IMG/VR virus record: IMGVR_UViG_3300021338_000004
Coordinates: 13,176-77,175 of that record
DNA: 64,000 bases
Reading direction: 5' to 3' (one strand)
Origin: a virus
This document shows, piece after piece, positions 1 to 27,069 of this stretch. The first letter of the stretch is position 1. Each line of letters begins with the position of its first letter. The notes beneath the pieces are model-generated. The model did not search any database. It was not told the origin of the DNA and saw only the letters and a list, made by a program, of their open reading frames with translations. The position numbers and the translations under genes were made by a program.

Positions 1-3000
1 AGCGAGCTCACGCAGCTGTTCGTACAGTTCCTCCTGCTCATCGCTCATGTCTACGAATTCATTGGATTCAGGCGCGTCTGGAAGCTCCAGACCCACGTCA
101 TCCGCATTGCGCAGCAGCGTATAGCGGTGGAACAGGTTGCGTAGACCATCCAGGTTCTGGAAGCCCACCAGGCCATCGGAGTCCACCAGCTCGCCCGATA
201 CTTTCTGGCGGGTAACGGTTTCCACCTTGCCGAACACGCGCACAAAGTCGTCGGCGGTGTAGACGCCGTAACGTTCGAACTCCTCCACCGGAATTAGCAG
301 GGACAGCATGTTGTAGATCTCCAACGGACTATTGGTGATCGGTGTTGCGGTTAGTAGAACAGGGCCGCGACCGGCGTTCTGGTCTCGCAAGTGCGCCATC
401 TTCATGGCCATGTCGCGTGCGCGCTGACTGGAGACCGGTGTCGGCAGATAGGCAATACGCTGAGACTCTTTGCCCGCTTCGTAGCTGTTCTTGAAGTGAT
501 GAGCTTCATCCACAATCACGGACTGGAAGTTCATGTCTTCGAAGTATGGGTATTCGCCTTTCTTATTGGTCCCTTCATCGCTGTAGGCCTGTCGTACCTT
601 GTCGGTACGTTTCGCCTCGTTGTAGGACAGGCGATCACCGCCTTTGCCCATATCTACTTTTTCGCCGGCAATGGCCTCCACCGCATCGCGCTGGCTAATC
701 AGGTCACGCTCAACCCATTTATCTGCGTATTTCTCTTTGGTGCGGGCGCGCATCGGAATCATGCCGAAGCGCTCCTGAGACATTACGATCTTGGATTTGG
801 AGGTGTGCGGAATCTGGTGCATCTTGTCATAAATGGTCTGGGCATCATCTTCCACCAGAACATCTTGATACATCAGCTCGCCGGTAAACTTGTTTTTCTT
901 CGGATTGCCCTCTTCATCCAATACAAGCTCGCGTTCGACGTTGCCATCCTTGCCGGCTTTCGGGCTAAAACCGATAAACAGCACGTCCTCCATGGTGCCA
1001 AGGAATGTATTGTGCTCGTGATACCAGTTACCCAGGACATTGTTTGGAACTACGGTCGCAGTGCGGTTCGCACGCCCCATCTGTTTGTTGTAGGTCGCCA
1101 GCGCGATCGCAGAGAAGGTTTTGCCCAGGCCAACGTCGTCAGCCAGGATGCCGCGCCCCTCTTCCGACATGCGACGGATACCTGCGTTTTGATACCCATG
1201 CGGTTTAATGGTGTCCGGGACGCCCTTCAGCTCCAATGAGTTCTCCTCATAGCTCATTGGAATGTAGCCATTGAACTTCTGGTTGTACTGCGCCTGCAGC
1301 TGTTCGGCGTCCTGGTGCTGCTGCATGAAGATGGTGAACTCTTCTTCCAGCGCTTTGACCCGGTCTTTGTATTCCTGGATGTATTCCGCCTTGCTTGAAG
1401 TGATCGCGTTGCCGTTCAGGTAGCGATTCATCTGCTTCAGGAACCCGGTTTCATCCATGTAGCCGTAGAATTCACCGAAAGGTGAGCTGGTATCATTGGT
1501 AAGCTCTTTCTCCCAGTATTTTTCGCCGGTATCGGGATCCTCGCGCTGTACGTCCTTTTCCACACCGTAGCGCAAGTGTCGATATCCCTTCTGCTCAAAA
1601 AACTCCAGGATGTATTTTCGATCAAACCATTTTTGGTTCAGGCCAAACGAGATGTCTTCCAGGCTGGTGGAATTCACCTTAGCGCTGATCTCATCGATCT
1701 GCGCTTGCCATTTGGCTTTCAGGCGTGGATCGCTTTCCTGGCTCATCGCCTTGGCCAGTGCTGCTGCTTTCGGGAACACCTCTCCGGAACAGAAACGGTT
1801 CATCGGCATCATGCGACCGTCTGCGGTAATGGCTACACCTGGCTCCTCTGCCAAATCGCCCAAGCTCTTCAGTGCACGCGGCCCGCGGTATAGCGCTTGC
1901 ACATCCTCCAGGGTGATTTCGTCAATCCCCTCGCGAATGTACAGATGCTCAATGATCGATTGCAGCAGTGTATCGTCGTACTGCTGCTGGTCGCTGGCGG
2001 ACTCTCCGGACAATAGAGCAGAAAAATTACCGTCCTGGTCGATCGAATTCCGGAATACCCCCAGGTAGCGGGCGCTGTCGCCCTCTAGCTGCAGGTGGCG
2101 ATTCTTCTTTGGGTCGCCATAGCGGTTGTATTCCGCTGCAACGAGCTCCTGCAAGGCAACCAGATCACCGGTATCCGCGTCACCTGTGCGCTCCTGGTTC
2201 TGGTATCGGTTGATCAGCGTGCCAATCAATGCGCCGCGAAAAACCTGCTCTTGAGCGGATGGCGCTTGTTCAGCTGCGAGCGCGATTGCAGCCTTCTGCT
2301 GATCGGTGAAAAGGTCCGGCCAGCTATCGCTTGCGGCTTTGGCCTGCTGATAGGTTAGGTTTAGCGTGGATTGATTATGTGACAACAGGCCTTTCAGTTG
2401 TTCAATGCTGTCAGCGCCGTAGGTTTTGACATCAATGCCGGTCGGATTGTCCAGGCCGTGATCCACTTCCTGCCAGTCGCCACCACTCATAATGTATTCG
2501 CGGTCGTTCATGTAGCGGCGATCGCCTTCCGCGTAGTAGCGGATGACCGGTTCTGCCGTGTCCAGCAGCGCCCAATCAATGCGGCTATCAAATTTACGTG
2601 CCAGCGCCTGTTTAAGGCCGGCTTCGGTGATCTCGTTGTTGATCACACGGTCCTGGTCGCGAAACTTGTTCGGATCTTTCGGGACGAACGTACCCTGGAT
2701 GAATGGTCGCCCTTCCGGTGATTTGAACCATTCGCCTTGGATAAACGTGTCCCAAACCACATTGGCTGCTTTCAGGGTGTCGATTGACATATCCTGAATG
2801 CGTGCGATCGCATCGCGGGAATGCTTGCGCAGAATGATGACATCGGTAACGACATCAGTGCCTTGGCGACCAAACGTTTTAGATGGCAGCTTATGCGCGC
2901 CCAGGAATTCCGCCACCTTGCTTAGCTGGGTGCGCCAGCGCTCCCACTTCGCACCACGCCCGCTGACGATATTGATGGGCACTACCAGCGCAATCAAGCC

Positions 3001-5127
3001 GCCAGGGCGGACCTTATCCACCACACGGCGTACAAAGTAGCGCTCAATCAGCTTCTCTTTCTTGTACAGCGGATCGTCATGGGCGGATGCGCCGCGGGCA
3101 TCGCCAAACGGCACGTTGCCGATAATGGCGTCAAAGGTGTCGTCTTGCGCATCGACCGCCAGCTTCTCAAAGCTCTGGTTAAGGATCTGATCTTCTGGAT
3201 GAAGAATGCGGTTCACGCCTGCGGACAGAGGATCGATCTCCGTGCCGGTGATGCGTACGCCGTCATTTTTGGTGGCACTGAACACGCCGGATCCGGTGGC
3301 CGGCTCCAGGACATTGCCGTTCTCAAAGCCGTTGGCTTTCAGCATATCCCACACACCTTCAGCAACGTGCGTTGGTGTGAAGTATTCATACTGGCTGTTA
3401 ACGGTTAAGCCGCCGCGACCGGAGTACTGAACCAGGGTTTTTCGATCTTCCAGTGTCAGTGAATCCGCATTCCAGTCGCTTGCTTTGATTCGCTCCACGA
3501 TGGCCGCTGCTTGCGCGTTCAGGTGTTCGCGAGTCTTTACGCCACTTGCCTTGAGGCCGAACTCTATCGCCTCGTCAGCGGCTTCTGAGTCGCCCTGTGC
3601 CTGCAACTCGATCCCTGTGAATTCCTGGAGCGCTTGATCAATCTTGGCTTTGCTGGCGGGCAACCGAATGCCAGTTAGCTTAGTAAAGCCTCGTTTTAAG
3701 TGGGTATTGACCCCTTTAGGGTGCGCCAGCAGTGTCTGCAGCACGGTAAAGTCCCGTGCGGTGACCGCATCCACCAGCTGTTTAACGAGGCCTGTAGGCT
3801 CATCGACTGGCACGCCCTGTGGATAAATAATCGATTCTGCTTCAGCAGTCAGCTTTTCGATATCGACCGGCGGCGCAACTGCCTCCAGGAATGCCGCCTC
3901 CAGTTCATCTACGCTGGTGGCCGCCATGATCTTCTGAATGGCAGGGCTTTCTTCGCCGGCACTGTCCAGAATGTCAGTGAGCTCAACATGCAGTTCCTGC
4001 ATGGCTTCCGGGCTAATGCCTGACAGAAAATGGGAAAACGCATGCTGGTCAATGGCCGTTTCATCGCTCGCACTATCCAGCAGGGATACTTTGCCCGCAC
4101 CGTCGCCATCCAGATAAAACTCTACTTTGTCATCGCCTTGCTTGGATACCACGACATTGGTGCCCGCACCGTCATGCGTGTACTTGGATATTGTTTCCAG
4201 CATTTTGCGCAGCGCGTTATAACCGTCATGGTCATGCGTAGCCACTTTCAGCACCAGGTCGCGTACTTTTCCGGCACCATCCATCACGAACTGCAACGGG
4301 ATTTCTACCTTGTGCTCTTTCGCGCGATGTTTGTTGCCGAACAGCAGGTAACGAAAGTCTTCGACCTTCATCGTGCTGATGGGCCCAAGGAAACGATCGT
4401 CGTCATAATGCGCCAGATAGGCGTCACGCGCGGCCTGCTGGTTAGGGAAGCCGATGAACACCTTGTCTTCGTCAAAGTAGGCAGAGCATGCACAATGGTG
4501 TGGATGCTCATGGCAGTCAGGACAGGTGTCGTCTTTCCACGCTTTTACCTTCTCAATCGCATGCTGTTTGACGATGTACACATGCTTTGCACTGCGATCG
4601 GGGCCGATGTAGCAATCCACACCCTCGCCATCTTCGCCGATGGTGCCGCGGATATAGCCGTAATCGTTACGCATGGTAATAGACCAAGCATGACCGTCTG
4701 GGTCTTTGCCTTCACGCTTGGAGCCGGCCTTATTTTCGATGGATATCGGCATGCCCTGGAATTGATATCGATCCTGCAGACGGAAGTCTGTTTTTTTCTT
4801 CAGGTGAAGGTCGTTCATGGCGCTGTCTAGCAGCGGCTGATTGTTCAGGTCTTCCGGGTATTCCTGATGCTCGCCTTCCAGGATCTCTACGTCAAAGTCA
4901 GCGGATTTTTTGAGTGTGTAGTGAAGCGACATTGGCTCCATGTCTGGGTGTCGCGCGATGCGCCCCAGTGGGCTCATGCCGTTGCGGGTTAACTCATCTT
5001 CCAGGAAGGTCTTGGATAACTCATCACCGTCCAAATGGACCGTACCACGACGGTCCCATGGTGCATCAATGGTGGCCGTCACAAATCCACCACCGTCATT
5101 AGTGGAGACTTTGAACTTATATGTCAT
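1..5127 (-). CDS. darB: DarB-like polyvalent antirestriction protein (N-terminal extension, InPase-like domain, N6-adenine MTase, SNF2/SF2 helicase); 3' end lies outside the window, >=1709 aa
   Basis: Absent from the ORF track because it has no stop in the window. I translated about 5127-3100 by hand without a stop and found the helicase motifs and window end in the same frame. Start ATG 5127 with AAGGA RBS. Motifs: GMPISIENKAGS...DYGYIRGTIGEDGEGVDCYIGP (InPase-like); VLEPATGSG and GNVPFG (MTase); LADDVGLGKT, VIVDEAH and LLTATP (SNF2). Confidence 0.9.
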   Translation of the reverse strand, partial: MTYKFKVSTNDGGGFVTATIDAPWDRRGTVHLDGDELSKTFLEDELTRNGMSPLGRIARHPDMEPMSLHYTLKKSADFDVEILEGEHQEYPEDLNNQPLLDSAMNDLHLKKKTDFRLQDRYQFQGMPISIENKAGSKREGKDPDGHAWSITMRNDYGYIRGTIGEDGEGVDCYIGPDRSAKHVYIVKQHAIEKVKAWKDDTCPDCHEHPHHCACSAYFDEDKVFIGFPNQQAARDAYLAHYDDDRFLGPISTMKVEDFRYLLFGNKHRAKEHKVEIPLQFVMDGAGKVRDLVLKVATHDHDGYNALRKMLETISKYTHDGAGTNVVVSKQGDDKVEFYLDGDGAGKVSLLDSASDETAIDQHAFSHFLSGISPEAMQELHVELTDILDSAGEESPAIQKIMAATSVDELEAAFLEAVAPPVDIEKLTAEAESIIYPQGVPVDEPTGLVKQLVDAVTARDFTVLQTLLAHPKGVNTHLKRGFTKLTGIRLPASKAKIDQALQEFTGIELQAQGDSEAADEAIEFGLKASGVKTREHLNAQAAAIVERIKASDWNADSLTLEDRKTLVQYSGRGGLTVNSQYEYFTPTHVAEGVWDMLKANGFENGNVLEPATGSGVFSATKNDGVRITGTEIDPLSAGVNRILHPEDQILNQSFEKLAVDAQDDTFDAIIGNVPFGDARGASAHDDPLYKKEKLIERYFVRRVVDKVRPGGLIALVVPINIVSGRGAKWERWRTQLSKVAEFLGAHKLPSKTFGRQGTDVVTDVIILRKHSRDAIARIQDMSIDTLKAANVVWDTFIQGEWFKSPEGRPFIQGTFVPKDPNKFRDQDRVINNEITEAGLKQALARKFDSRIDWALLDTAEPVIRYYAEGDRRYMNDREYIMSGGDWQEVDHGLDNPTGIDVKTYGADSIEQLKGLLSHNQSTLNLTYQQAKAASDSWPDLFTDQQKAAIALAAEQAPSAQEQVFRGALIGTLINRYQNQERTGDADTGDLVALQELVAAEYNRYGDPKKNRHLQLEGDSARYLGVFRNSIDQDGNFSALLSGESASDQQQYDDTLLQSIIEHLYIREGIDEITLEDVQALYRGPRALKSLGDLAEEPGVAITADGRMMPMNRFCSGEVFPKAAALAKAMSQESDPRLKAKWQAQIDEISAKVNSTSLEDISFGLNQKWFDRKYILEFFEQKGYRHLRYGVEKDVQREDPDTGEKYWEKELTNDTSSPFGEFYGYMDETGFLKQMNRYLNGNAITSSKAEYIQEYKDRVKALEEEFTIFMQQHQDAEQLQAQYNQKFNGYIPMSYEENSLELKGVPDTIKPHGYQNAGIRRMSEEGRGILADDVGLGKTFSAIALATYNKQMGRANRTATVVPNNVLGNWYHEHNTFLGTMEDVLFIGFSPKAGKDGNVERELVLDEEGNPKKNKFTGELMYQDVLVEDDAQTIYDKMHQIPHTSKSKIVMSQERFGMIPMRARTKEKYADKWVERDLISQRDAVEAIAGEKVDMGKGGDRLSYNEAKRTDKVRQAYSDEGTNKKGEYPYFEDMNFQSVIVDEAHHFKNSYEAGKESQRIAYLPTPVSSQRARDMAMKMAHLRDQNAGRGPVLLTATPITNSPLEIYNMLSLLIPVEEFERYGVYTADDFVRVFGKVETVTRQKVSGELVDSDGLVGFQNLDGLRNLFHRYTLLRNADDVGLELPDAPESNEFVDMSDEQEELYEQLRELA

Positions 5128-5142: not shown

Positions 5143-6894
5143 CTACTTCAGCCTGGGCAGCTCCTGTCCTTCGCGATACCACTCAGGGGCGCGTTGATGT
5201 AGGACTAGCATCTGTATCTGCTCGGCGGTTGATTGGATACCCTGCTCATTCAGCAATGACAGGTAGATGTAGGTTTTTGCCTGCACCTCTGTCTGGAAGT
5301 AGAAAAGATTTCGACCACCTTTTTCCACACCAAAAAAATGTTTGGCTGGAGTACCGTTGCGCTTTGCGATTTGTAGCGGGTAGATACTGTAGTCGTGTAG
5401 CTGCTGACGCTGAGCTTCAGCGTCTGTCCATGCCAGGGATGAAAGATGCTTGCGCGTAGCTTTGAGAAAGGTGTAGCCGCGAAGCTGTTCGCCGAACGTG
5501 CGCTGCTGGCGCTCGCGCTCAAGGCCTGACATTCCAGTCAGTAGACCGATCATCATATCGAACATTTCACGGTCGGCATTAAAGAGAGCGTACATTCGTT
5601 CCGGGTCGGTCAGCTGCTGCATCCCCATGGAGATGACCTCGGTGTAACCGCCGTCGTACACCTTGCCAACATAAGGGTCGAAGAACTTATCGCGAATGGC
5701 CTGCTCTGATGGTCGGTAGCGGCGATTGTCCGTGATGTCCTGAAGCGGCTCAGGCTCGCCCGTCGTGCCCCTGGTTTTTACAAAGTCGTTGGATAACGCT
5801 TTGATTGCGGGGTCTGCTTCCAAAAGGTGTGACAATTCATGCCAAAGCACGGTTTTATCGAAGTCGCCATCAACCATGATCTCTGAACGACCGATATACG
5901 CATGCGCGCGCTCACTGCCATCTGAGCTGATTGTGACTTTATCCAAGCGGCCTTGGGTAAGCTGATAATACTCTGCTAGGTCACGACGTAACTGAGGTGC
6001 TTGATATCCCTGCCGGCGCAAACGGTTCATGGCTGTTGGAGATATCTGTTGCATAGATGCCCAGGCTTCGGCCTCTTCCTGGGATACCGGGGACTCCTGG
6101 ATAAGTGCATCGTACAGTGGACGCATCATCTTAACGCACAGAAAACGACGTTTGCGCGTCAGGTCTTTGATCTTTTGCCGGTCTTCGCTACTCAGAACAA
6201 TCTGCTCATCAGTCCACTGGGAATATACCGGGTCGATGTATTGATCATATAGATCTTCGATGTGCTGCTTCTGGTTGGAAAACTCTTGCTTGAGCGCTGA
6301 AAGCTTTGCCTTTCGGATATCAGGAGATAGATTCTGATCTTTAGCGATCGACTGAGATTCAGCCACCAGGGCCGTTAGCTGATCTTCTTTTTCATCAATT
6401 CCATGTTCGGACTTTAAGTGCTCAAGTGTCTTTAGGAACTCTGATTCATCGCGCTGTGCAGCATCTTTGATGGACTTGATGGTTGAGGTGGCATCCTGGA
6501 TGCCATCGCTCAATAGTTTGGCTTCGTGATCATCCAGGAAGCGGGTGGTCTGGTTGCCGGCCGCAGTCACACCCAGACGCTTTACCGCCCCTGCTTCATC
6601 ACTCAACAAAAAGCTTGTGGCAAGACTGTGCAGGCTGAATCCCGATTCACGCTCAACCGCGCTATAGCGCTCCATCGGGTAATAACGCTGAAGGTCCGCT
6701 TTTAGGTCTGTTATTTCACGATGAGCGCTGGCCTTGTCCGTGATGGTGGCGCGGGGATTTAACAAAACATCAGCCGCCCGGGTGATGCGGGCGACCTGCT
6801 CTTCTTTACTCTGGCCCAGTATCCGAAAGAAGACGGCTTCTAAGCCGTCCATGGTGGTGACGGAATGCAGGGCTTTCAGCAATTCTTTATTCAT
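5143..6894 (-). CDS. ddrB: DdrB-like virion cargo protein with zincin metallopeptidase motif
   Basis: LWHELSHLLE (HExxH) plus downstream YTEVISMG; follows darA-ddrA as in P1. Confidence 0.75.
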   Translation of the reverse strand: MNKELLKALHSVTTMDGLEAVFFRILGQSKEEQVARITRAADVLLNPRATITDKASAHREITDLKADLQRYYPMERYSAVERESGFSLHSLATSFLLSDEAGAVKRLGVTAAGNQTTRFLDDHEAKLLSDGIQDATSTIKSIKDAAQRDESEFLKTLEHLKSEHGIDEKEDQLTALVAESQSIAKDQNLSPDIRKAKLSALKQEFSNQKQHIEDLYDQYIDPVYSQWTDEQIVLSSEDRQKIKDLTRKRRFLCVKMMRPLYDALIQESPVSQEEAEAWASMQQISPTAMNRLRRQGYQAPQLRRDLAEYYQLTQGRLDKVTISSDGSERAHAYIGRSEIMVDGDFDKTVLWHELSHLLEADPAIKALSNDFVKTRGTTGEPEPLQDITDNRRYRPSEQAIRDKFFDPYVGKVYDGGYTEVISMGMQQLTDPERMYALFNADREMFDMMIGLLTGMSGLERERQQRTFGEQLRGYTFLKATRKHLSSLAWTDAEAQRQQLHDYSIYPLQIAKRNGTPAKHFFGVEKGGRNLFYFQTEVQAKTYIYLSLLNEQGIQSTAEQIQMLVLHQRAPEWYREGQELPRLK

Positions 6895-7205: not shown

Positions 7206-9795
<2,590 letters not shown>

Positions 9796-10457: not shown

Positions 10458-11075
10458 TTACGCGCCCTTCAGGGCTTCCGGCCATTCCGCCTGCCAGTTG
10501 GCCGCAATGTCTTGTAGCTGTTCAAACCAATCATCAGGAAGCTGATCGCTATCTGATAGCGATTTCAGATCATCAATCTTGTCTTCAGCCGCATGAAAGT
10601 CGCCCATGATGATGCTGGTGTATTCGGCGCTTCTACGAACCTTTTTGTTGACGCGATTTACCAGCTCTTCAAGTGAGATATTGCGGCGCTCTGACATGCC
10701 TTTAAGCGTGGTTACTTCCGCTGATGCATCCTTCATATAGGCCTCTGCCTCCGATCTTTGCTGAGGCCAGGTCTCAATCATGTTTTGGGTATATCCGCGT
10801 TTAAGAATCGCCAGAGCACGCTCGGCAGTCGTGGAAATTTCGCCAAGCACACGGGCTACCTCAACATGAAATGAGCGAACCGGGGTCCAGGTTGAATCGC
10901 CATCAAACAAGTGAGCGGTTGGGTTTTCGGGAATGAGGCGATCGTCCACTTCGTAAACTTCATAGCCCGGGGCTTTTAGCATGGACTCACGAGGCTTGAT
11001 GCGGCTAACCAGTTTCACTTGACTGGATGCTGAGTCGACTACTACAAATGAGAATGACTTTTCTGATGCCATCAT
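10458..11075 (-). CDS. Putative tail fibre assembly/chaperone protein
   Basis: ETWPQQRSEAEAY...ISLEELVNRV is typical of fibre chaperone genes; follows the fibre gene. Confidence 0.55.
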   Translation of the reverse strand: MMASEKSFSFVVVDSASSQVKLVSRIKPRESMLKAPGYEVYEVDDRLIPENPTAHLFDGDSTWTPVRSFHVEVARVLGEISTTAERALAILKRGYTQNMIETWPQQRSEAEAYMKDASAEVTTLKGMSERRNISLEELVNRVNKKVRRSAEYTSIIMGDFHAAEDKIDDLKSLSDSDQLPDDWFEQLQDIAANWQAEWPEALKGA

Positions 11076-17208: not shown

Positions 17209-19316
17209 TAGCGTACATCCCGACTCATGAGCTCCAGGTTCATATCACTGAAGTGCATAGATGGAGAGCTGGCTCCGGTATTTTGTGGCGTGGGTGCAGC
17301 CGCTCGCGGTGCGGCCCTATAGTGACGGACACCGCCACCAGATCCCGCCGTTTGAACGATCAGGGGCGACCGCCTCAATTCGGCGGCTATGGCTACGCCA
17401 ATCTTTTTGGCATCAATCGGTTCCTGCTTGGCAACCACGACCCGCTCGATTGAATGGGATTCAATGCTTTCGGTATTAGGCATGAGATCGGGCAAGACAT
17501 TAATAGATGCTTCGCCGCTGGCAGCTGCTGCAGCACCGGTCGCAGATTGCATGGTGTATGTTTTCCCTGGCGCAATCGTGGCGCGCCTGGCTGCTTTCTT
17601 TCGCTCATCGGCCAGTGCATGCACCTCTGCCACCTCGCGGCGATCTGCTTTTTCCTGATAGCGTTCGGCATCTGATTTTGGTGATACGGCGGGATCTGGT
17701 GGCGCTGAAGTCTGTTTTTCATCAGATCCTAACCAGCCGCTGAGTGCTTCACCCAGGGTCTCTCCCAGCTTCTCCCCACCGAAGGCACCAAGGGCACCAC
17801 CAATGATTGTCCCTATGACTGGCATAACAGCGGTGCCGACTGCCGCCCCAGCTAGTGCACCCCCCAGTGCGCCGCCGCCCGTGCTGGCTACCTGTGCGGC
17901 CTTCTGTGTGCCGCTGAGGCTGTCATCATCCTTGACCTCCATAAACTTGCTCGCCCCGGCCACAATTGCCGTGAGCGGCGCAGCAGCACGCGCCAACGCG
18001 CCTTTGGCGACAGCACCGATACTGCTTTTCCCTGCTCCGCTTGCGGTAGCCGCGGCAGTTGTCGTTGCTGCAACCTTGCCTGCAGGTTTTACTGCATCGA
18101 CTACACCGGCCTTTCGTCGGAATAAATCACGCAGTCGACGGCGCTTCCCGCGGCGGCGCTCCGGGACATCTACATCCCCACCATCAGCACCACCCAGCAG
18201 ATCTCCCAGGCCGGCACCTCCTGCTAACGTGTCCAGAAGGCCTTTCTGCTCCGGCTTGTAGCCGTTGTCCTCTATCGCGTCGATGACTTCTTTATGCTGA
18301 GTGGAACGGACTTCTACCTGATCTTCCTGGAGATCAGCTGTCCGCTGGTGGGTTTCCAGTATCTCCGTCTGGATATGACCGGTCTGCTTCTCATCGTTTC
18401 CGGGCGATGAAAAGAGCCGCTTTAGACGCCCGAACAGGCCGCCCTTGCCGTTTTTCTCTCGCGCCCGCTGTGCACGCTCCTCTTTACTGAGAAAACGCCC
18501 GGTTTCTGGATCCCGCGTTGCGTCAGTAACCGGCTGCGCATCGTCATCCGCGTTACCAAAAACAAGATGGCCAAGCTTAGAATCGGCCACCTCTTCGCCG
18601 GCTTCTTTGATCTCTTTTACGGCCTCCCAGATGCCGCCACCCACAACAGCGGATCCGGCAGCGTCAGAGGCATCAGCGCCCGCCAAATCGTCCGCCTTAT
18701 CCCGTTCAGTGAAGCCCTTGATGCCTTCAAACACACCCGACAACTTGCCTAAAAAGCCTCTCTGCTCTTCTTTTTGGCGGCGATCGGCTAACGCCTCTTC
18801 AGACTGTGAGCGACCTTCAGTGCTGGGAATGGGATCAGCCGAAGGAGCTGGTGATGCAGGAACGGACTGGGCAGCTGGATCCGCTTGCGTGGATTGATCG
18901 TCTACCTTTTTAGGCCTGGCTACCTGGCTGCCGACCTCTTCTGCCGGCTTGCCGGCTTCAGTAAGGGGGCGGGATGCCTGCCCTGAAAGGGGTTTCCTAT
19001 GGCTGCGAGCATCACTTACCGCCTCATTTGGTGGGACAACATGGACAGCATCACGTACAGATACACTGACATCTACTGCAACGGGATCCGGGCTGGTGCG
19101 CTCAGATATCGACGGCTGCTTTACTGCCGGCTGTGCGCCTGCCTCTCCCTTACCCCACCAACGATGACCCACCAGATCCGGCAGTACCGACGTGTTTTTG
19201 TCGATCTGCTCCAGGAGCTCAAGCGCCTGATCAGATTCTGTTGTACCGGTTAGCTCCTGGTTGGCGCTCTGCATGGGCGACCAGTCATCAATGGTGACCT
19301 GTCGTTCGTCAGTCAT
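17208..19316 (-). CDS. Tail tape measure protein (in the position of P1 sit)
   Basis: 702 aa, Ala/Gly-rich with glycine-zipper GGALGGALAGAAVG; downstream of the chaperone gene. Confidence 0.75.
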   Translation of the reverse strand: MTDERQVTIDDWSPMQSANQELTGTTESDQALELLEQIDKNTSVLPDLVGHRWWGKGEAGAQPAVKQPSISERTSPDPVAVDVSVSVRDAVHVVPPNEAVSDARSHRKPLSGQASRPLTEAGKPAEEVGSQVARPKKVDDQSTQADPAAQSVPASPAPSADPIPSTEGRSQSEEALADRRQKEEQRGFLGKLSGVFEGIKGFTERDKADDLAGADASDAAGSAVVGGGIWEAVKEIKEAGEEVADSKLGHLVFGNADDDAQPVTDATRDPETGRFLSKEERAQRAREKNGKGGLFGRLKRLFSSPGNDEKQTGHIQTEILETHQRTADLQEDQVEVRSTQHKEVIDAIEDNGYKPEQKGLLDTLAGGAGLGDLLGGADGGDVDVPERRRGKRRRLRDLFRRKAGVVDAVKPAGKVAATTTAAATASGAGKSSIGAVAKGALARAAAPLTAIVAGASKFMEVKDDDSLSGTQKAAQVASTGGGALGGALAGAAVGTAVMPVIGTIIGGALGAFGGEKLGETLGEALSGWLGSDEKQTSAPPDPAVSPKSDAERYQEKADRREVAEVHALADERKKAARRATIAPGKTYTMQSATGAAAAASGEASINVLPDLMPNTESIESHSIERVVVAKQEPIDAKKIGVAIAAELRRSPLIVQTAGSGGGVRHYRAAPRAAAPTPQNTGASSPSMHFSDMNLELMSRDVR

Positions 19317-19328
19317 AGGCTACCTGCA

Positions 19329-19499
19329 TTACTTGGTTTTCTTTGAAAGCGCCCGATTGAGGCTAAGAACGTAGCTGCGCGGGCTGGATAGCACGCTGTC
19401 CAGCGGCTGCCGTCCACGCTCTGTCAGACATAGGTTGCTGATTACGATATCCCAATCGCGCTTACTAAATCCGCGGAATAAACTCGACACACCGAAAGG
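19329..19499 (-). CDS. Putative +1 frameshift extension of the tail assembly chaperone (GT-like C-terminus)
   Basis: Overlapping +1-frame ORF ending 12 nt before the tape measure ATG. Confidence 0.55.
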   Translation of the reverse strand, partial: PFGVSSLFRGFSKRDWDIVISNLCLTERGRQPLDSVLSSPRSYVLSLNRALSKKTK

Positions 19500-20247
19500 G
19501 AAGGTGCAGCCGTGTTGACGCATCCCCCTTCCCGCTAGGGCAGATATGTGGCGGGCTTTTCAGGGAAAACTTGCCATTATTCAGAGCCAGCGGGACACCA
19601 TGCATCATCTCTGACTCACAGCTATCAACCAGCGCTTTAAGTTTTTTAAACTGGCTCTCCGGCATGCCCATAACCCACTCGGTGCGATCGCTTTCTTCAC
19701 GCTTGGCATCCGCTGCTTGGGCGTTGGGCAATATCAGGCGAAAGATCACCTCATGTACCCGTATTTTGGCATTCTCCGCGCGATACTCGGGGCTATCCTC
19801 TGCATACTCATCACGTTTAAGCCTCATGAGCTGCAGTGCTTCGGCATCTTCCCCGTTCAAACAGTGGATCTGGATCGTTTTGCCGTTAAATTCCCGTTCG
19901 CGGTACGACGCGCCTTGAATTGACCGGTATTCGGCTGCGATATCACGCATATCAAATGTGTGGTGATGCTCTTTTTGGCAGTGAGGACACTGATACGGCA
20001 CGCTGGCATACGTATCGGCCTGTGTATGCATGGCATACCAAAATACTGCCGTATAGCGATCCGCGACCGTCCAAGTTGATGCATCAGAGTAGTACTCTGG
20101 TAACTGAATCGTGTTGAGAAAGGCCGTAATTAGCGTTTCTTCATGCTCTGGCATCACTTCGCTAAAGCCGATGCATTGCGCGACACTGACCTCCTGCAGG
20201 TGGAGTTTTTTGTCGGGCTGGCTGGGTTGCTGAAGAACCGGAATCAT
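19465..20247 (-). CDS. pmgB: PmgB-like tail assembly chaperone / baseplate hub assembly protein
   Basis: Likely ATG 20247 (MIPVLQQPSQP) with ATGA overlap; WTVADR and CPHC motifs; upstream of the tape measure gene. Confidence 0.7.
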   Translation of the reverse strand: MIPVLQQPSQPDKKLHLQEVSVAQCIGFSEVMPEHEETLITAFLNTIQLPEYYSDASTWTVADRYTAVFWYAMHTQADTYASVPYQCPHCQKEHHHTFDMRDIAAEYRSIQGASYREREFNGKTIQIHCLNGEDAEALQLMRLKRDEYAEDSPEYRAENAKIRVHEVIFRLILPNAQAADAKREESDRTEWVMGMPESQFKKLKALVDSCESEMMHGVPLALNNGKFSLKSPPHICPSGKGDASTRLHLPFRCVEFIPRI

Positions 20248-22773: not shown

Positions 22774-23454
22774 TTACATGCCCCGCTTCTTGCGCACACC
22801 CATGGATTTGGCGCGTTTGCGACGGGCGGATGCTGAATGAGCTTTTTTGCGGGCCTTTTTAAGTGCTGCTTTTTGTGCCGCTGAAAGCTTTGGCTTGCGC
22901 AGCGTTTTACGCACCAGTGTTACCACACCGTTGCGCACGACACGGATTTTGGCGCCATCCAGAATGGCGGATGCTTTCAGCGCAAAACGGGAAATAATCT
23001 CGTCATCGGCGCGCTCGCTGTCTTCGATACGTTTGCTCAGATAATTTGCCAGCTTTTCGCCTGCTTCTGAGTCTTCGTCATCGATAAACTGCTTCACATT
23101 CGCCTTATTGCCGCCCAGTTCCACCAATGCATCGGCAGTTGTGGCCAGAATGGCGTTATAGGCCTCTTCTTCTTCATCAGTGATCTCGCCATCACCATCC
23201 GCGTCAGCAAGGCCTGCCACCAGACCGTTCAGCATGTTCCAGGAATAATCGTCGCCACCGATAAACTCCAGCGCCGCGGCCATACCCAGTGCGCGCTCCT
23301 GTTTGCTGCCATAGTCGTCTTCGGCGCTATCAAACAACGCTTCATCCATGGTGATTTCATCAGCAGAGACGCTTTTGTTTCCGGCGTCAGGGAATGGATT
23401 GCTTGCGGCGCTATCCAGCACCAAAGAACCACCAGTACCAAAAATATCTGTCAC
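22774..23454 (-). CDS. P1 gp21-like prohead core protein (acidic N-terminus, very basic C-terminus)
   Basis: VVRNGVVTLVRK...SAAQKAALKKARKKAH...SMGVRKKRGM; adjacent to the sheath gene. Confidence 0.75.
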   Translation of the reverse strand: MTDIFGTGGSLVLDSAASNPFPDAGNKSVSADEITMDEALFDSAEDDYGSKQERALGMAAALEFIGGDDYSWNMLNGLVAGLADADGDGEITDEEEEAYNAILATTADALVELGGNKANVKQFIDDEDSEAGEKLANYLSKRIEDSERADDEIISRFALKASAILDGAKIRVVRNGVVTLVRKTLRKPKLSAAQKAALKKARKKAHSASARRKRAKSMGVRKKRGM

Positions 23455-25494: not shown

Positions 25495-27069
25495 TTAGTC
25501 AACAATGCGCAACCAGGTAAACCAGGAACGCCCGTTTTTCGGGTGAAGATCACGGTACGCCAGGTCATACAGGGTGTTTTTGTGCTTCAGATCGGCCTGG
25601 ATGCTGTGCGGGAAGTTGATCATGGTGATAGCATCACCGGCCACGAAGCCGGCATCACCGTGGCTTGCGCCTTTTGCGTAACAGAAAACGCCCCATGGAT
25701 CATCCATGTATGGGTCTTCTTTGAAGACATAGCCGAATGCGGTGCCGACCAGGTGCGGCTGTGCGATGTGACGGTATCCAGGCACTGTTTTCACAAAAGG
25801 ATGTCCCAGCGAGCGCAGCAGGGCAGCGGCTTTACCACCACATACCATGCCGACCATGCCTGATTTACGTGTTGCCAGCATCAGCTTCTGACTGATTTCC
25901 TGGAACTTCACGTTCAGGCTCTGATAATGCTCGCGGTAATTCAGACCGCTCGGAATGCCACGGCTCCACTCTGTCTCGCCCTTGGCAAAGAAGTACATGG
26001 CCATAAGGCGATTGCGATCGCGCTCTGATGCCAGGACATTGCGAGATGCGCTCAGGTTCATCTGGCCCAAATTCATACCAAACTCTCGGCCCATGCTGAA
26101 CTGCGCCTGGATTGTGGAGCTACAGCCCAGAGCAGATTCATGCGGGCGCAGAGTCCAGGACTCCATGCGGTGCTCGATACCCGGGATCAGCGACGGGTCG
26201 CTTTCAATATTGATGTCGAAACCAAAGTGCACGTCCAAGCCGGATGCGACACCGGTCGAAAAGTCCGTTGTGATACCGCCGTCTTCGTAGGCAACCGTGC
26301 CGGTCAGTACGACTGTGTCACCATCACCATTTACATAACGGCCAAAAATACCGCCTTTACCGTCATCCGAGCCGACCAGTTCGCGGTCGACATACACCAT
26401 GACCATATTCGGCTTAAATGGCATTTTCTTGCCCAGATCAGTGGTGCTGGACAGGGTGAACTGCTTTTTGGTGCCATCACCCGTGCCCACCAGGCGGCGC
26501 TGGTCCATGGTGCCGTACTGCTTATTGAAGGTTTCGTCGATGACATCGCCTTTTTTCATGTCACCGAAGTCGGAATTGGCGTGGCGTGTCAGCGCAAACA
26601 GTTCGCTTTTGTCATAGTTACCCGGAATGGTGGTGACCATGTCGTTCGTAACCATCATCAGCGCTGTTGGCACAATCAGCGCGACGCGGTGGTCGCGTAG
26701 CTCAACACCTTCGCTGGTGGACAACGGCGCACCTGCGGAGTCGAGGATTTTACCGAGCTTATTGTCGTCCTGTGGCGCCAGCTGGCTGCGCAGCTGTGAA
26801 TGCATAGAGGACATCAACTCGCTCGATGGCAGCTGGCCGTCATGTGCATCACGGTAGCTTTCCAGCGCGTTGATTGTGCCCAGGAGCAGAGATGGGCCTT
26901 TGTCGCCCGCGCCATCAAAAATGGTCTCTTTGCATTTGCTCTGCACGATGCCAGGCCATTCAGCGCGCGGCGCGCCATCTACAAGACCCAGCGTCTGCGC
27001 GTACATTGCCTGGGCGCTTTCCTGCAGAAATGCTGTGCGGTCCAGGTATTTAGAGATATCGGTTGTCAT
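25495..27069 (-). CDS. Major capsid protein (P1 gp23-like) with N-terminal propeptide
   Basis: 524 aa; FGDMKKGD, DINIESDP, TIQAQFSMGREFG and GFVAGDA motifs; synteny. Confidence 0.88.
   Translation of the reverse strand: MTTDISKYLDRTAFLQESAQAMYAQTLGLVDGAPRAEWPGIVQSKCKETIFDGAGDKGPSLLLGTINALESYRDAHDGQLPSSELMSSMHSQLRSQLAPQDDNKLGKILDSAGAPLSTSEGVELRDHRVALIVPTALMMVTNDMVTTIPGNYDKSELFALTRHANSDFGDMKKGDVIDETFNKQYGTMDQRRLVGTGDGTKKQFTLSSTTDLGKKMPFKPNMVMVYVDRELVGSDDGKGGIFGRYVNGDGDTVVLTGTVAYEDGGITTDFSTGVASGLDVHFGFDINIESDPSLIPGIEHRMESWTLRPHESALGCSSTIQAQFSMGREFGMNLGQMNLSASRNVLASERDRNRLMAMYFFAKGETEWSRGIPSGLNYREHYQSLNVKFQEISQKLMLATRKSGMVGMVCGGKAAALLRSLGHPFVKTVPGYRHIAQPHLVGTAFGYVFKEDPYMDDPWGVFCYAKGASHGDAGFVAGDAITMINFPHSIQADLKHKNTLYDLAYRDLHPKNGRSWFTWLRIVD

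Follow-up and report, generated by a model that had tools for sequence, protein, structure and literature searches.

We analysed a stretch of 64,000 nucleotides (the window), bases 13,176-77,175 of the 77,175-bp IMG/VR virus record IMGVR_UViG_3300021338_000004, which has direct terminal repeats, and concentrated on a minus-strand open reading frame (ORF) for a very large protein related to DarB of phage P1. The ORF runs off the window and continues for 2,537 nt past the window start in the virus record, giving a protein of 2554 aa and 288.5 kDa. An InPase domain, an N6 methylase and an SNF2 helicase lie together in this single chain, and the ORF sits among phage virion and late genes, the two marks by which we recognise a polyvalent protein. 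The order of the Pfam domains after InPase (PF02384, PF07669, PF00176 and PF04851) is that of an adenine methylase followed by an SF2/SNF2 helicase, and the N-terminal methylase region aligns with P1 DarB, which places the protein in the DarB family.

Ahead of the methylase, a first-pass annotation made from the letters of the window had picked out a string of small modules separated by putative cleavage sites. Every element that it listed is present and in the listed order: LLDSA at residues 99-103, an InPase domain with the insert CPDCHEHPHHCAC at 202-214, VMDGA at 281-285, LLDSA at 349-353, ILDSA at 386-390, and then the methylase-helicase (Table 1). In an AlphaFold2 (AF2) model of residues 1-409, computed from a 93-row alignment and with a mean pLDDT of 79, confident domains lie at residues 1-90 and at about 112-270, whereas pLDDT is below 50 in segments 97-111, 281-288, 319-322, 342-348, 351-363 and 404-409. 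The modelling that the annotation had proposed as a check on the N-terminal part therefore returned a folded first module and a folded InPase-like domain, with three of the four junction motifs in, or overlapping, predicted disordered linkers between folded parts.

The ATG of the ORF (5127-5125, minus strand) lies 15 nt past the stop of the upstream gene (5145-5143) and behind a Shine-Dalgarno-like sequence. The first-pass annotation had conceded that a start downstream of the modules would undo its reading. This possibility is ruled out by the ribosome-binding site and by conservation of module 1 from its first residues: the start at 5127 is real because seven relatives (2113-2350 aa) open with the same module at residues 1-2.

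In the 77-kb record, the ORF is located between genes for Hdf-, DarA- and DdrB-like proteins and genes for the portal and the protease Pro. Its minus-strand neighbours within the window are the Hdf-like gene, the DarA-like gene (865 aa) and a 583-aa DdrB-like gene. The annotation had set the first module directly after ddrB, and the adjacency holds, but what this neighbour has in common with P1 DdrB is only the zincin peptidase part, aa 784-972 (BLASTP 2e-10). The 583-aa protein (5143-6894) is without the ParB-like N-terminal part of P1 DdrB.

Table 1. Features of the DarB-like gene and of related head genes, in window coordinates. The arrow in a motif marks the known or predicted cut.
Feature	Coordinates	Strand	Basis or remark
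DarB-like polyvalent ORF	1-5127	-	translation; Pfam InPase, N6_Mtase/Eco57I, SNF2; runs off window
Shine-Dalgarno-like AAGGAA	5136-5141	-	8-9 nt ahead of ATG at 5127; read directly from sequence
Module 1, aa 1-101, 11.5 kDa	4825-5127	-	folded alpha/beta domain; AF2 model
Junction 1 LLD↓SA, aa 99-103	4819-4833	-	candidate head-protease site; in pLDDT<50 segment 97-111
InPase module, aa 102-283, 21.0 kDa	4279-4824	-	PF18823; family I pyrophosphatase-like OB fold
CPDCHEHPHHCAC insert in InPase, aa 202-214	4486-4524	-	four Cys
Junction 2 VMD↓GA, aa 281-285	4273-4287	-	in pLDDT<50 segment 281-288
Module 3, aa 284-351, 7.3 kDa	4075-4278	-	two helices and hairpin (AF2)
Junction 3 LLD↓SA, aa 349-353	4069-4083	-	between pLDDT<50 segments 342-348 and 351-363
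Module 4, aa 352-388, 4.1 kDa	3964-4074	-	acidic helical peptide
Junction 4 ILD↓SA, aa 386-390	3958-3972	-	cut would create mature DarB N-terminus
Conserved helix motif IQKIMAATSVDELEAAFLEAV, aa 397-417	3877-3939	-	after last junction; multiple alignment
DarB core, aa 389-2554, 244.7 kDa	1-3963	-	methylase and SNF2 helicase; no strict site inside
DdrB-like zincin protein, 583 aa	5143-6894	-	HELSH at aa 352; upstream neighbour of darB
DarA-like protein, 865 aa	7202-9799	-	DarA_N E 1.5e-26
DarA-like site VMD↓SA, aa 47-51	9647-9661	-	N-terminal
DarA-like site ILD↓AV, aa 65-69	9593-9607	-	aligns with P1 DarA LLE68↓A69
Major capsid protein, 524 aa, P1 gp23 homologue	25495-27069	-	tblastn to P1 gene 23, 1e-59; sites aa 29, 50, 108
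Capsid maturation site ILD↓SA, aa 108-112	26734-26748	-	reference site for motif

Junction motifs and the capsid maturation site

We defined a strict motif, [LIVMF][LIVMF]D[SG]A, and counted it in the 95 gene calls (23,908 aa). This Asp motif is found 15 times in the proteome, compared to 1.24 copies expected (Poisson 6e-12). In the same proteome, the Glu version occurs once with 1.28 expected, and the reversed motif is absent with 1.24 expected. Four of the copies fall within DarB residues 1-420, where 0.029 are expected (3e-8), and there are none in the 2134 residues from 421 to 2554. The φφD[SG]A junction motifs exceed chance.

The motif of the junctions is also that of the capsid maturation site. 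Edman sequencing of P1 gp23 identified S121, directly after MLE120, as the mature N-terminus (Gonzales et al. 2022, PMC9024508), and in a pairwise alignment the sequence KILD↓SAGAP of the capsid protein here matches AMLE120↓S121VAAEM of gp23 column for column. The same capsid column reads AILD↓SAG, SVLD↓SAG, PILD↓ST or LVLE↓SA in five relatives. The pentapeptide class of this site is present four times in DarB residues 1-420, the feature that we looked for in a Pro substrate. Other carriers are the DarA-like protein, at aa 47 (Table 1), the portal, with a motif at aa 540 of 567 (its C-terminus), and the homologue of P1 Pro, with one at aa 167 of 334, just past the protease domain. Such head proteins are the substrates that one would expect for the protease, and the places of their sites correspond to those in P1. 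A single copy in a ParA-like protein is likely a chance match.

Phage P1 itself has φφE[SAG] in gp23 (47, 103, 118), DarA (66, LLE↓A), Prt (557 of 569) and DdrB (439), and seven times in Pro, including MFE↓SA at 168; the motif is absent from P1 DarB, Ulx, DdrA, Hxr and Hdf. Two published observations fit this map: the 2026 cryo-EM structure shows nothing of P1 DarA residues 1-69, and Hdf reportedly is not processed (PMC12810830).

Database labels for Pro differ from the role described for it in P1. The homologue here (L002 2803-3807, minus strand, outside the window) falls in phrog_1801, labelled 'tail fiber protein', and the RefSeq P1 record NC_005856 gives pro (19014-20033) the same product name, which looks like a propagated mislabel.

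We counted the strict motif in the whole records of four relatives as well, where 0.4-1.9 copies are expected. The Asp and Glu types number 15 and 1 in the phage studied here, 7 and 0 in G002, 0 and 8 in G005, 1 and 6 in G006, and 4 and 2 in G007. The aligned column in Pro follows the type of the genome (YVLD↓SA vs YVLE↓SA vs MFE↓SA), and so do DarA, the portal C-terminus and the junctions of the polyvalent proteins. Because the acidic residue switches genome-wide in step with the junctions, the simplest account would be that one enzyme pocket reads all of these sites. In an alignment of the Pro homologues from six genomes (A6), A88, L105 and E116 here, as opposed to N, V and P, separate Asp-type from Glu-type sequences. 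These three columns are candidates for the specificity pocket and only a lead, as six sequences are too few and the split is confounded by phylogeny.

Mixed use of the two residues was seen in two places. G007 (L030-L034) has Asp-type sites in the capsid, DarA, portal and InPase proteins and VLESA in Pro. In the P1 portal, LMD↓SI occupies the column where the relatives have their C-terminal site, and ILE↓SV follows twelve residues later. Judging from these cases, the proteases may tolerate both acidic residues.

The relatives also show how the modules are joined and separated. A nucleotide search of a phage collection with this DNA gave no match, and a scan of viral contigs with the single protein found no relatives, but an alignment-based scan did find some. 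Proteins of the Vibrio and Xenorhabdus type (2113-2350 aa) consist of module 1, V[VI]FD↓SA, InPase, QFVHD↓SA (often followed by VLD↓SA) and DarB. In L012, a 307-aa gene encodes module 1, IFE↓SA and InPase and ends just after FVGES at the second junction; a DUF1353 gene and a separate DarB of 2076 aa come after it. L011 encodes a 612-aa protein and, separately, a DarB of 2100 aa, and L013 has an InPase-first protein of 956 aa and a 2292-aa DarB that, by eye, opens with a module-1-like domain. Module 1 is fused straight to DarB in P0246 and P0247. As far as their sequences tell, the relatives' genes for module 1 plus InPase and for DarB break at the junction motifs. The first-pass annotation had suggested looking for relatives that encode the modules as separate genes, and L011, L012 and L013 are such cases, split at the motifs. 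The same motif also separates unrelated modules (HAD-like and LPD domains) in P0096, which has five sites, and in P0099, P0213, P0222 and P0227.

Individual junctions can be followed through the alignment. At junction 1, the relatives have V[VI]FD↓SA, and genomes of the Glu type have VFE↓SA, VLE↓SA or IFE↓SA. Junction 2 reads QFVHD↓SA, QFITD↓SA, QFVSE↓SA or QFVAE↓SA. Junction 4 reads VLD↓SA, ILD↓SA or TILD↓AA, or L[IV]LE↓RA in the Glu type, and stands directly ahead of the same helix motif. Modules 3 and 4, together with some 100 further residues, are additions in this phage, because the Vibrio- and Xenorhabdus-type proteins go from the InPase junction to DarB directly. Module 3 has no family match in Pfam or PHROG and is absent from the Vibrio-type relatives, and module 4 resembles, by eye only, a duplicate of the helix motif next to it. 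For the roughly 100 residues 418-520 (window 3568-3876, minus strand), which separate the helix motif from the FGLKASGVKTRE block, neither P1 DarB nor any aligned relative has an equivalent.

Three other proteins of the window are of note. A 226-aa protein (22774-23454, minus strand; phrog_1053, unknown function) has an acidic N-terminal part and a very basic C-terminal tail. It contains VLD↓SA at 12, LFD↓SA at 40 and ILD↓GA at 164, and its 223-aa counterpart in G002 has VFD↓SA at 14; it is probably a further processed internal head protein. Another ORF (205 aa; 10458-11075, minus strand), immediately upstream of the Hdf-like gene, has VVD↓SA at aa 12-16 and may carry a short propeptide. The DarA-like protein, at 865 aa vs 639 in P1, includes a Pro/Glu-rich stretch, which matches Trypan_PARP weakly at aa 266-297, and, at aa 645-755, a DUF6908 unit.

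InPase, helix and leader modules

The InPase module scores well above the curated Pfam threshold. PF18823 matches the full ORF with an E-value of 3.9e-35 and 121 bits, above the cut-off of 26.8, and the isolated segment with 3.6e-39; across runs the score was 121-134 bits. The match comes in two stretches around CPDCHEHPHHCAC. The cysteines of this insert (C202, C205, C212 and C214) are invariant in the InPase subfamily alignment A2, the insert is absent from the stand-alone InPases P0127, P0158 and P0163, and it is probably a four-Cys zinc knuckle. All top PDB matches of the InPase part in Foldseek are inorganic pyrophosphatases (E 5e-3, probability up to 0.99). E131, D155, D166, D171, D219, E220 and D221 are also invariant in A2 and are presumably metal ligands. 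Elsewhere, MuF, portal and giant polyvalent proteins carry fused InPase domains, which makes this a widespread head-associated cargo domain, and stand-alone InPases of 147-178 aa are encoded on long contigs. We favor InPase as a functional enzyme that would be released from the chain because its active-site residues are conserved and its use as head-associated cargo is wide.

Directly after the last junction, the DarB core opens with the conserved helix motif IQKIMAATSVDELEAAFLEAV, which aligns with P1 DarB residues of about 6-17. These lie inside the 30-residue capsid-targeting sequence of P1 DarB, and 30 residues suffice to direct a reporter into P1 heads (PMC9024508). The separate DarB genes of Glu-type relatives begin with a short N-terminal peptide, L[IV]LE↓RA, and then the same helix. 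A similar helix motif, recognized by eye, opens both the DdrB-like protein here (6814-6894, minus strand) and P1 DdrB. Gonzales et al. found no capsid-targeting consensus by BLAST (PMC9024508); the helix motif may be a shared Dar loading tag.

Module 1 is predicted with high confidence as a small alpha/beta domain (pLDDT 92.6, pTM 0.83) of topology β-β-β-α-α-β. It has no Pfam or PHROG match, and a profile of 11 sequences recovered 48 representatives in 1.8 billion proteins. In all 48, the match begins at residues 2-22. About half of the family are stand-alone proteins of 95-185 aa, mostly with an acidic tail at the end, and the others precede varied cargo; in the fused multi-module proteins, module 1 is followed by a protease-type site. 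That it is always N-terminal points to a role in loading or as a propeptide. It may have a function of its own too, considering the stand-alone forms and a G007 InPase protein without module 1. Structure comparisons returned little: the best PDB match in Foldseek has an E-value of 0.5, and the best hit of a wide VIA-align run (Z 4.5, rmsd 3.0 over 58 residues) is at background level. In BFVD, the model matches three uncharacterised phage proteins of 87-101 aa (probability 1.0, TM 0.58-0.68), from which no function can be read.

The first-pass annotation had likened this module to P1 Hxr, a protein of similar size, and this part of its proposal was not supported. BLASTP against P1 Hxr gave an E-value of 0.19, hmmsearch gave 0.4 bits, within noise, and two hhalign runs gave E-values of 0.29 and 0.034 with probabilities of no more than 1.5%. 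The better hhalign alignment is collinear over 77 columns but has a probability of 1.5%, and its E-value of 0.034 is that of one comparison. The top 50 matches in BFVD for the model of module 1 do not include P1 Hxr, and a search for Hxr homologues found only near-identical E. coli/P1 proteins, from which no useful Hxr profile could be obtained. With all four sequence comparisons non-significant, the remaining likeness is the position after a DdrB-like gene and a similar size, and Hxr is at most a positional analogue of module 1.

A proposed route through the head

We think it likely that the DarB-like chain is a precursor that is loaded into the procapsid and then cut by Pro at the four junctions. 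Its description as a head-protease-processed polyprotein, with the cleavage predicted, is well supported by computation, and the modular chain with protease-type borders that was first proposed from the letters is strengthened by the motif enrichment, the capsid-site alignment and the Asp/Glu switch. The precursor would probably enter the procapsid as head cargo together with other Dar proteins. There, the prohead protease, a P1 Pro homologue encoded about 8 kb downstream and outside the window, would cut after Asp in φ-φ-D↓S/G-A, as in the capsid protein. Cleavage at all four sites would yield five products: the leader domain (11.5 kDa), InPase (21.0 kDa), two small pieces (7.3 and 4.1 kDa) and the DarB methylase-helicase (244.7 kDa), whose freed N-terminus would bear the helix motif matching the capsid-targeting region of P1. 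We infer that the folded fragments would remain in the head and be ejected with the DNA, and that DarB would then shield the DNA from type I restriction while InPase would work on pyrophosphate or on a signal derived from nucleotides. Pro is favored as the enzyme because the junctions share the capsid site, Pro itself has the motif at a self-processing position, and the Asp/Glu switch runs through all of the sites.

Several observations weigh against this course of events. P1 DarB is without a site and without reported processing (PMC9024508). The model places junction 4 (ILD↓SA, aa 386) in a helix of middling confidence, at pLDDT 65-69, and junction 1 is degraded in some relatives, to VIFDNT in P0006 and VVMDSN in P0009. 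The Pro homologue gave no Pfam match and no PDB sequence match with a six-sequence profile of its protease domain, and its role rests on the P1 literature. G007 is mixed in its use of Asp and Glu. In T4 and SPN3US, most propeptide fragments exit the head, so retention of InPase is not assured. Finally, the DarB core does not avoid a looser four-residue motif (2 observed, 2.1 expected). For the same motif, the cores of G002, G005, G006 and P1 each have 0 with about 2.3 expected, and that of G007 has 3 with 2.1 expected; site avoidance in DarB cores is a mixed result, and we do not use it as evidence.

The motifs could instead be conserved linker or docking elements, binding for example to the scaffold or core, that are left uncut, with the 288-kDa chain packaged and injected whole. 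Such a chain would resemble the 250-kDa virion protein DarB of P1, for which no processing is reported (PMC9024508), and the N4 virion RNA polymerase, which is packaged unprocessed, and it is favored by the one site of four that lies in a predicted helix. We regard this as unlikely, however: the pentapeptide is identical to the capsid cut site, the relatives' genes break exactly at the junctions, and an Asp/Glu switch across the whole substrate set fits one enzyme pocket better than it fits docking surfaces.

It is somewhat less probable again that the first 388 residues are a disposable propeptide for targeting or scaffolding, cut at redundant sites and expelled, which would leave DarB as the only cargo. 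In its favor, φKZ and SPN3US as a rule have long propeptides that are cut several times and mostly exit the capsid, the N-terminal region of the capsid protein here has three sites, and module 1 is always N-terminal. Against expulsion, InPase retains all of its conserved acidic residues, it is a widespread head-associated cargo domain with a separate gene in relatives, and a folded 21-kDa domain would be unlikely to exit through capsid pores.

Least probable, to our minds, is cutting of the junctions, either inside the head or once injected, by the adjacent DdrB-like protein with its zincin metallopeptidase: its gene, with HELSH and a match to the peptidase part of P1 DdrB, lies just upstream, Iyer et al. 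2017 propose zincin domains as processing enzymes of polyvalent proteins, and P0094 has such a motif in the same chain as InPase, but the junction motif is the capsid maturation site, aligned with that of P1 gp23, it recurs in Pro at a typical self-processing position and at the C-terminus of the portal (both prohead-protease substrates in T4-type systems), and its acidic residue before the cut and hydrophobic P3 match the gp21-type specificity L/I-X-E.

Comparison with known head cargo and implications

Processing by Pro, as we propose it, can be set beside what is known of P1 and of other head cargo. The likeness to the P1 Dar system is extensive, as homologues of Hdf, DarA, a DdrB-like zincin, DarB, the portal, Pro and gp23 are all present. 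The arrangement differs: in P1, darB is at a separate locus beside prt and pro, whereas here it follows the DdrB-like gene in one block. The proteins differ as well, since P1 DarB (2255 aa) begins about 5 residues before the helix and has no leader, InPase or site, and the acidic residue preceding the cut is Glu in phage P1 and Asp here.

That head cargo is cut is already known in general from T4, φKZ and polyvalent proteins. The catalogue of polyvalent proteins by Iyer, Burroughs, Anand, de Souza and Aravind (2017, PMC5512222) already includes InPase, DarA_N and the methylase-helicase dyad. Its authors suggested that these chains are divided into units, mainly by zincin domains, and gave no cut-site motif; for the assemblin-like peptidases to which some of the chains are fused, they suggested a role during assembly. 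The protein described here resembles polyvalent proteins in having several effector domains per chain and in being encoded among late and virion genes, but a defined motif, the same as that of capsid maturation, marks its junctions, and the proposed protease is encoded by a gene of its own. In T4, gp21 cuts after L/I-X-E and strips capsid targeting sequences from IPI-III and Alt. The likeness lies in injected cargo whose N-terminal part is removed by the prohead protease, in a hydrophobic P3 and an acidic P1 residue, and in a protease that processes itself. On the other hand, the T4 targeting sequences are of about 10 residues rather than a folded 100-aa domain, the cargo is of single domains rather than a string of enzymes, and the residue before the cut is Glu rather than Asp. 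A third comparison is with φKZ, 201φ2-1 and SPN3US (gp175/gp245), in which a short motif marks the cuts in many internal head and ejection proteins, often at more than one place in a protein, and Ser is preferred at P1' in SPN3US. The proteases of φKZ and SPN3US cut after S/A-X-E and A-X-E, with all reported cuts after Glu, and Glu is the specificity of the prohead proteases characterised in the literature cited here. Unlike the separation of enzyme domains considered here, almost all cuts in SPN3US remove N-terminal propeptides. In the papers cited here on P1 Dar, prohead proteases and polyvalent proteins, we found no DarB-type junction motif equal to the capsid site, no extension of the P1 gp23 site to DarA, the portal or Pro, and no lineage with Asp at the P1 position of the site.

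More speculatively, phages of the P1 group might share a portable code for loading and release, made of a folded N-terminal leader domain of the module 1 family, short junctions of the form φ-φ-[D/E]↓[S/G/A] that the prohead protease would read, and a helix tag ahead of the cargo. Anti-defense genes could then be fused or split freely while the head would still receive separate enzymes, and in one sublineage the protease would have switched from Glu to Asp with all of its substrates following. We offer this wider proposal tentatively, as something that could well turn out otherwise.

If the predicted cuts occur, the head protease of the P1 group would have a defined recognition code, for which only E120↓S121 of gp23 has been mapped so far. 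If true, such a code would point to a cut in DarA at LLE68↓A69, which is as yet unmapped, and perhaps to cuts in the portal and Pro. It would also offer a natural design by which several foreign proteins could be loaded into a P1-type transducing particle and set free as separate units, extending the 30-residue DarB tag of Gonzales et al. 2022 (PMC9024508). The Asp-specific sublineage would be a natural experiment on protease specificity. For the phages themselves, cleavage at these junctions would make clear how one giant polyvalent protein can deliver enzymes that act on different targets: the ordinary maturation protease would separate them in the head, and no peptidase domain within the chain would be needed.

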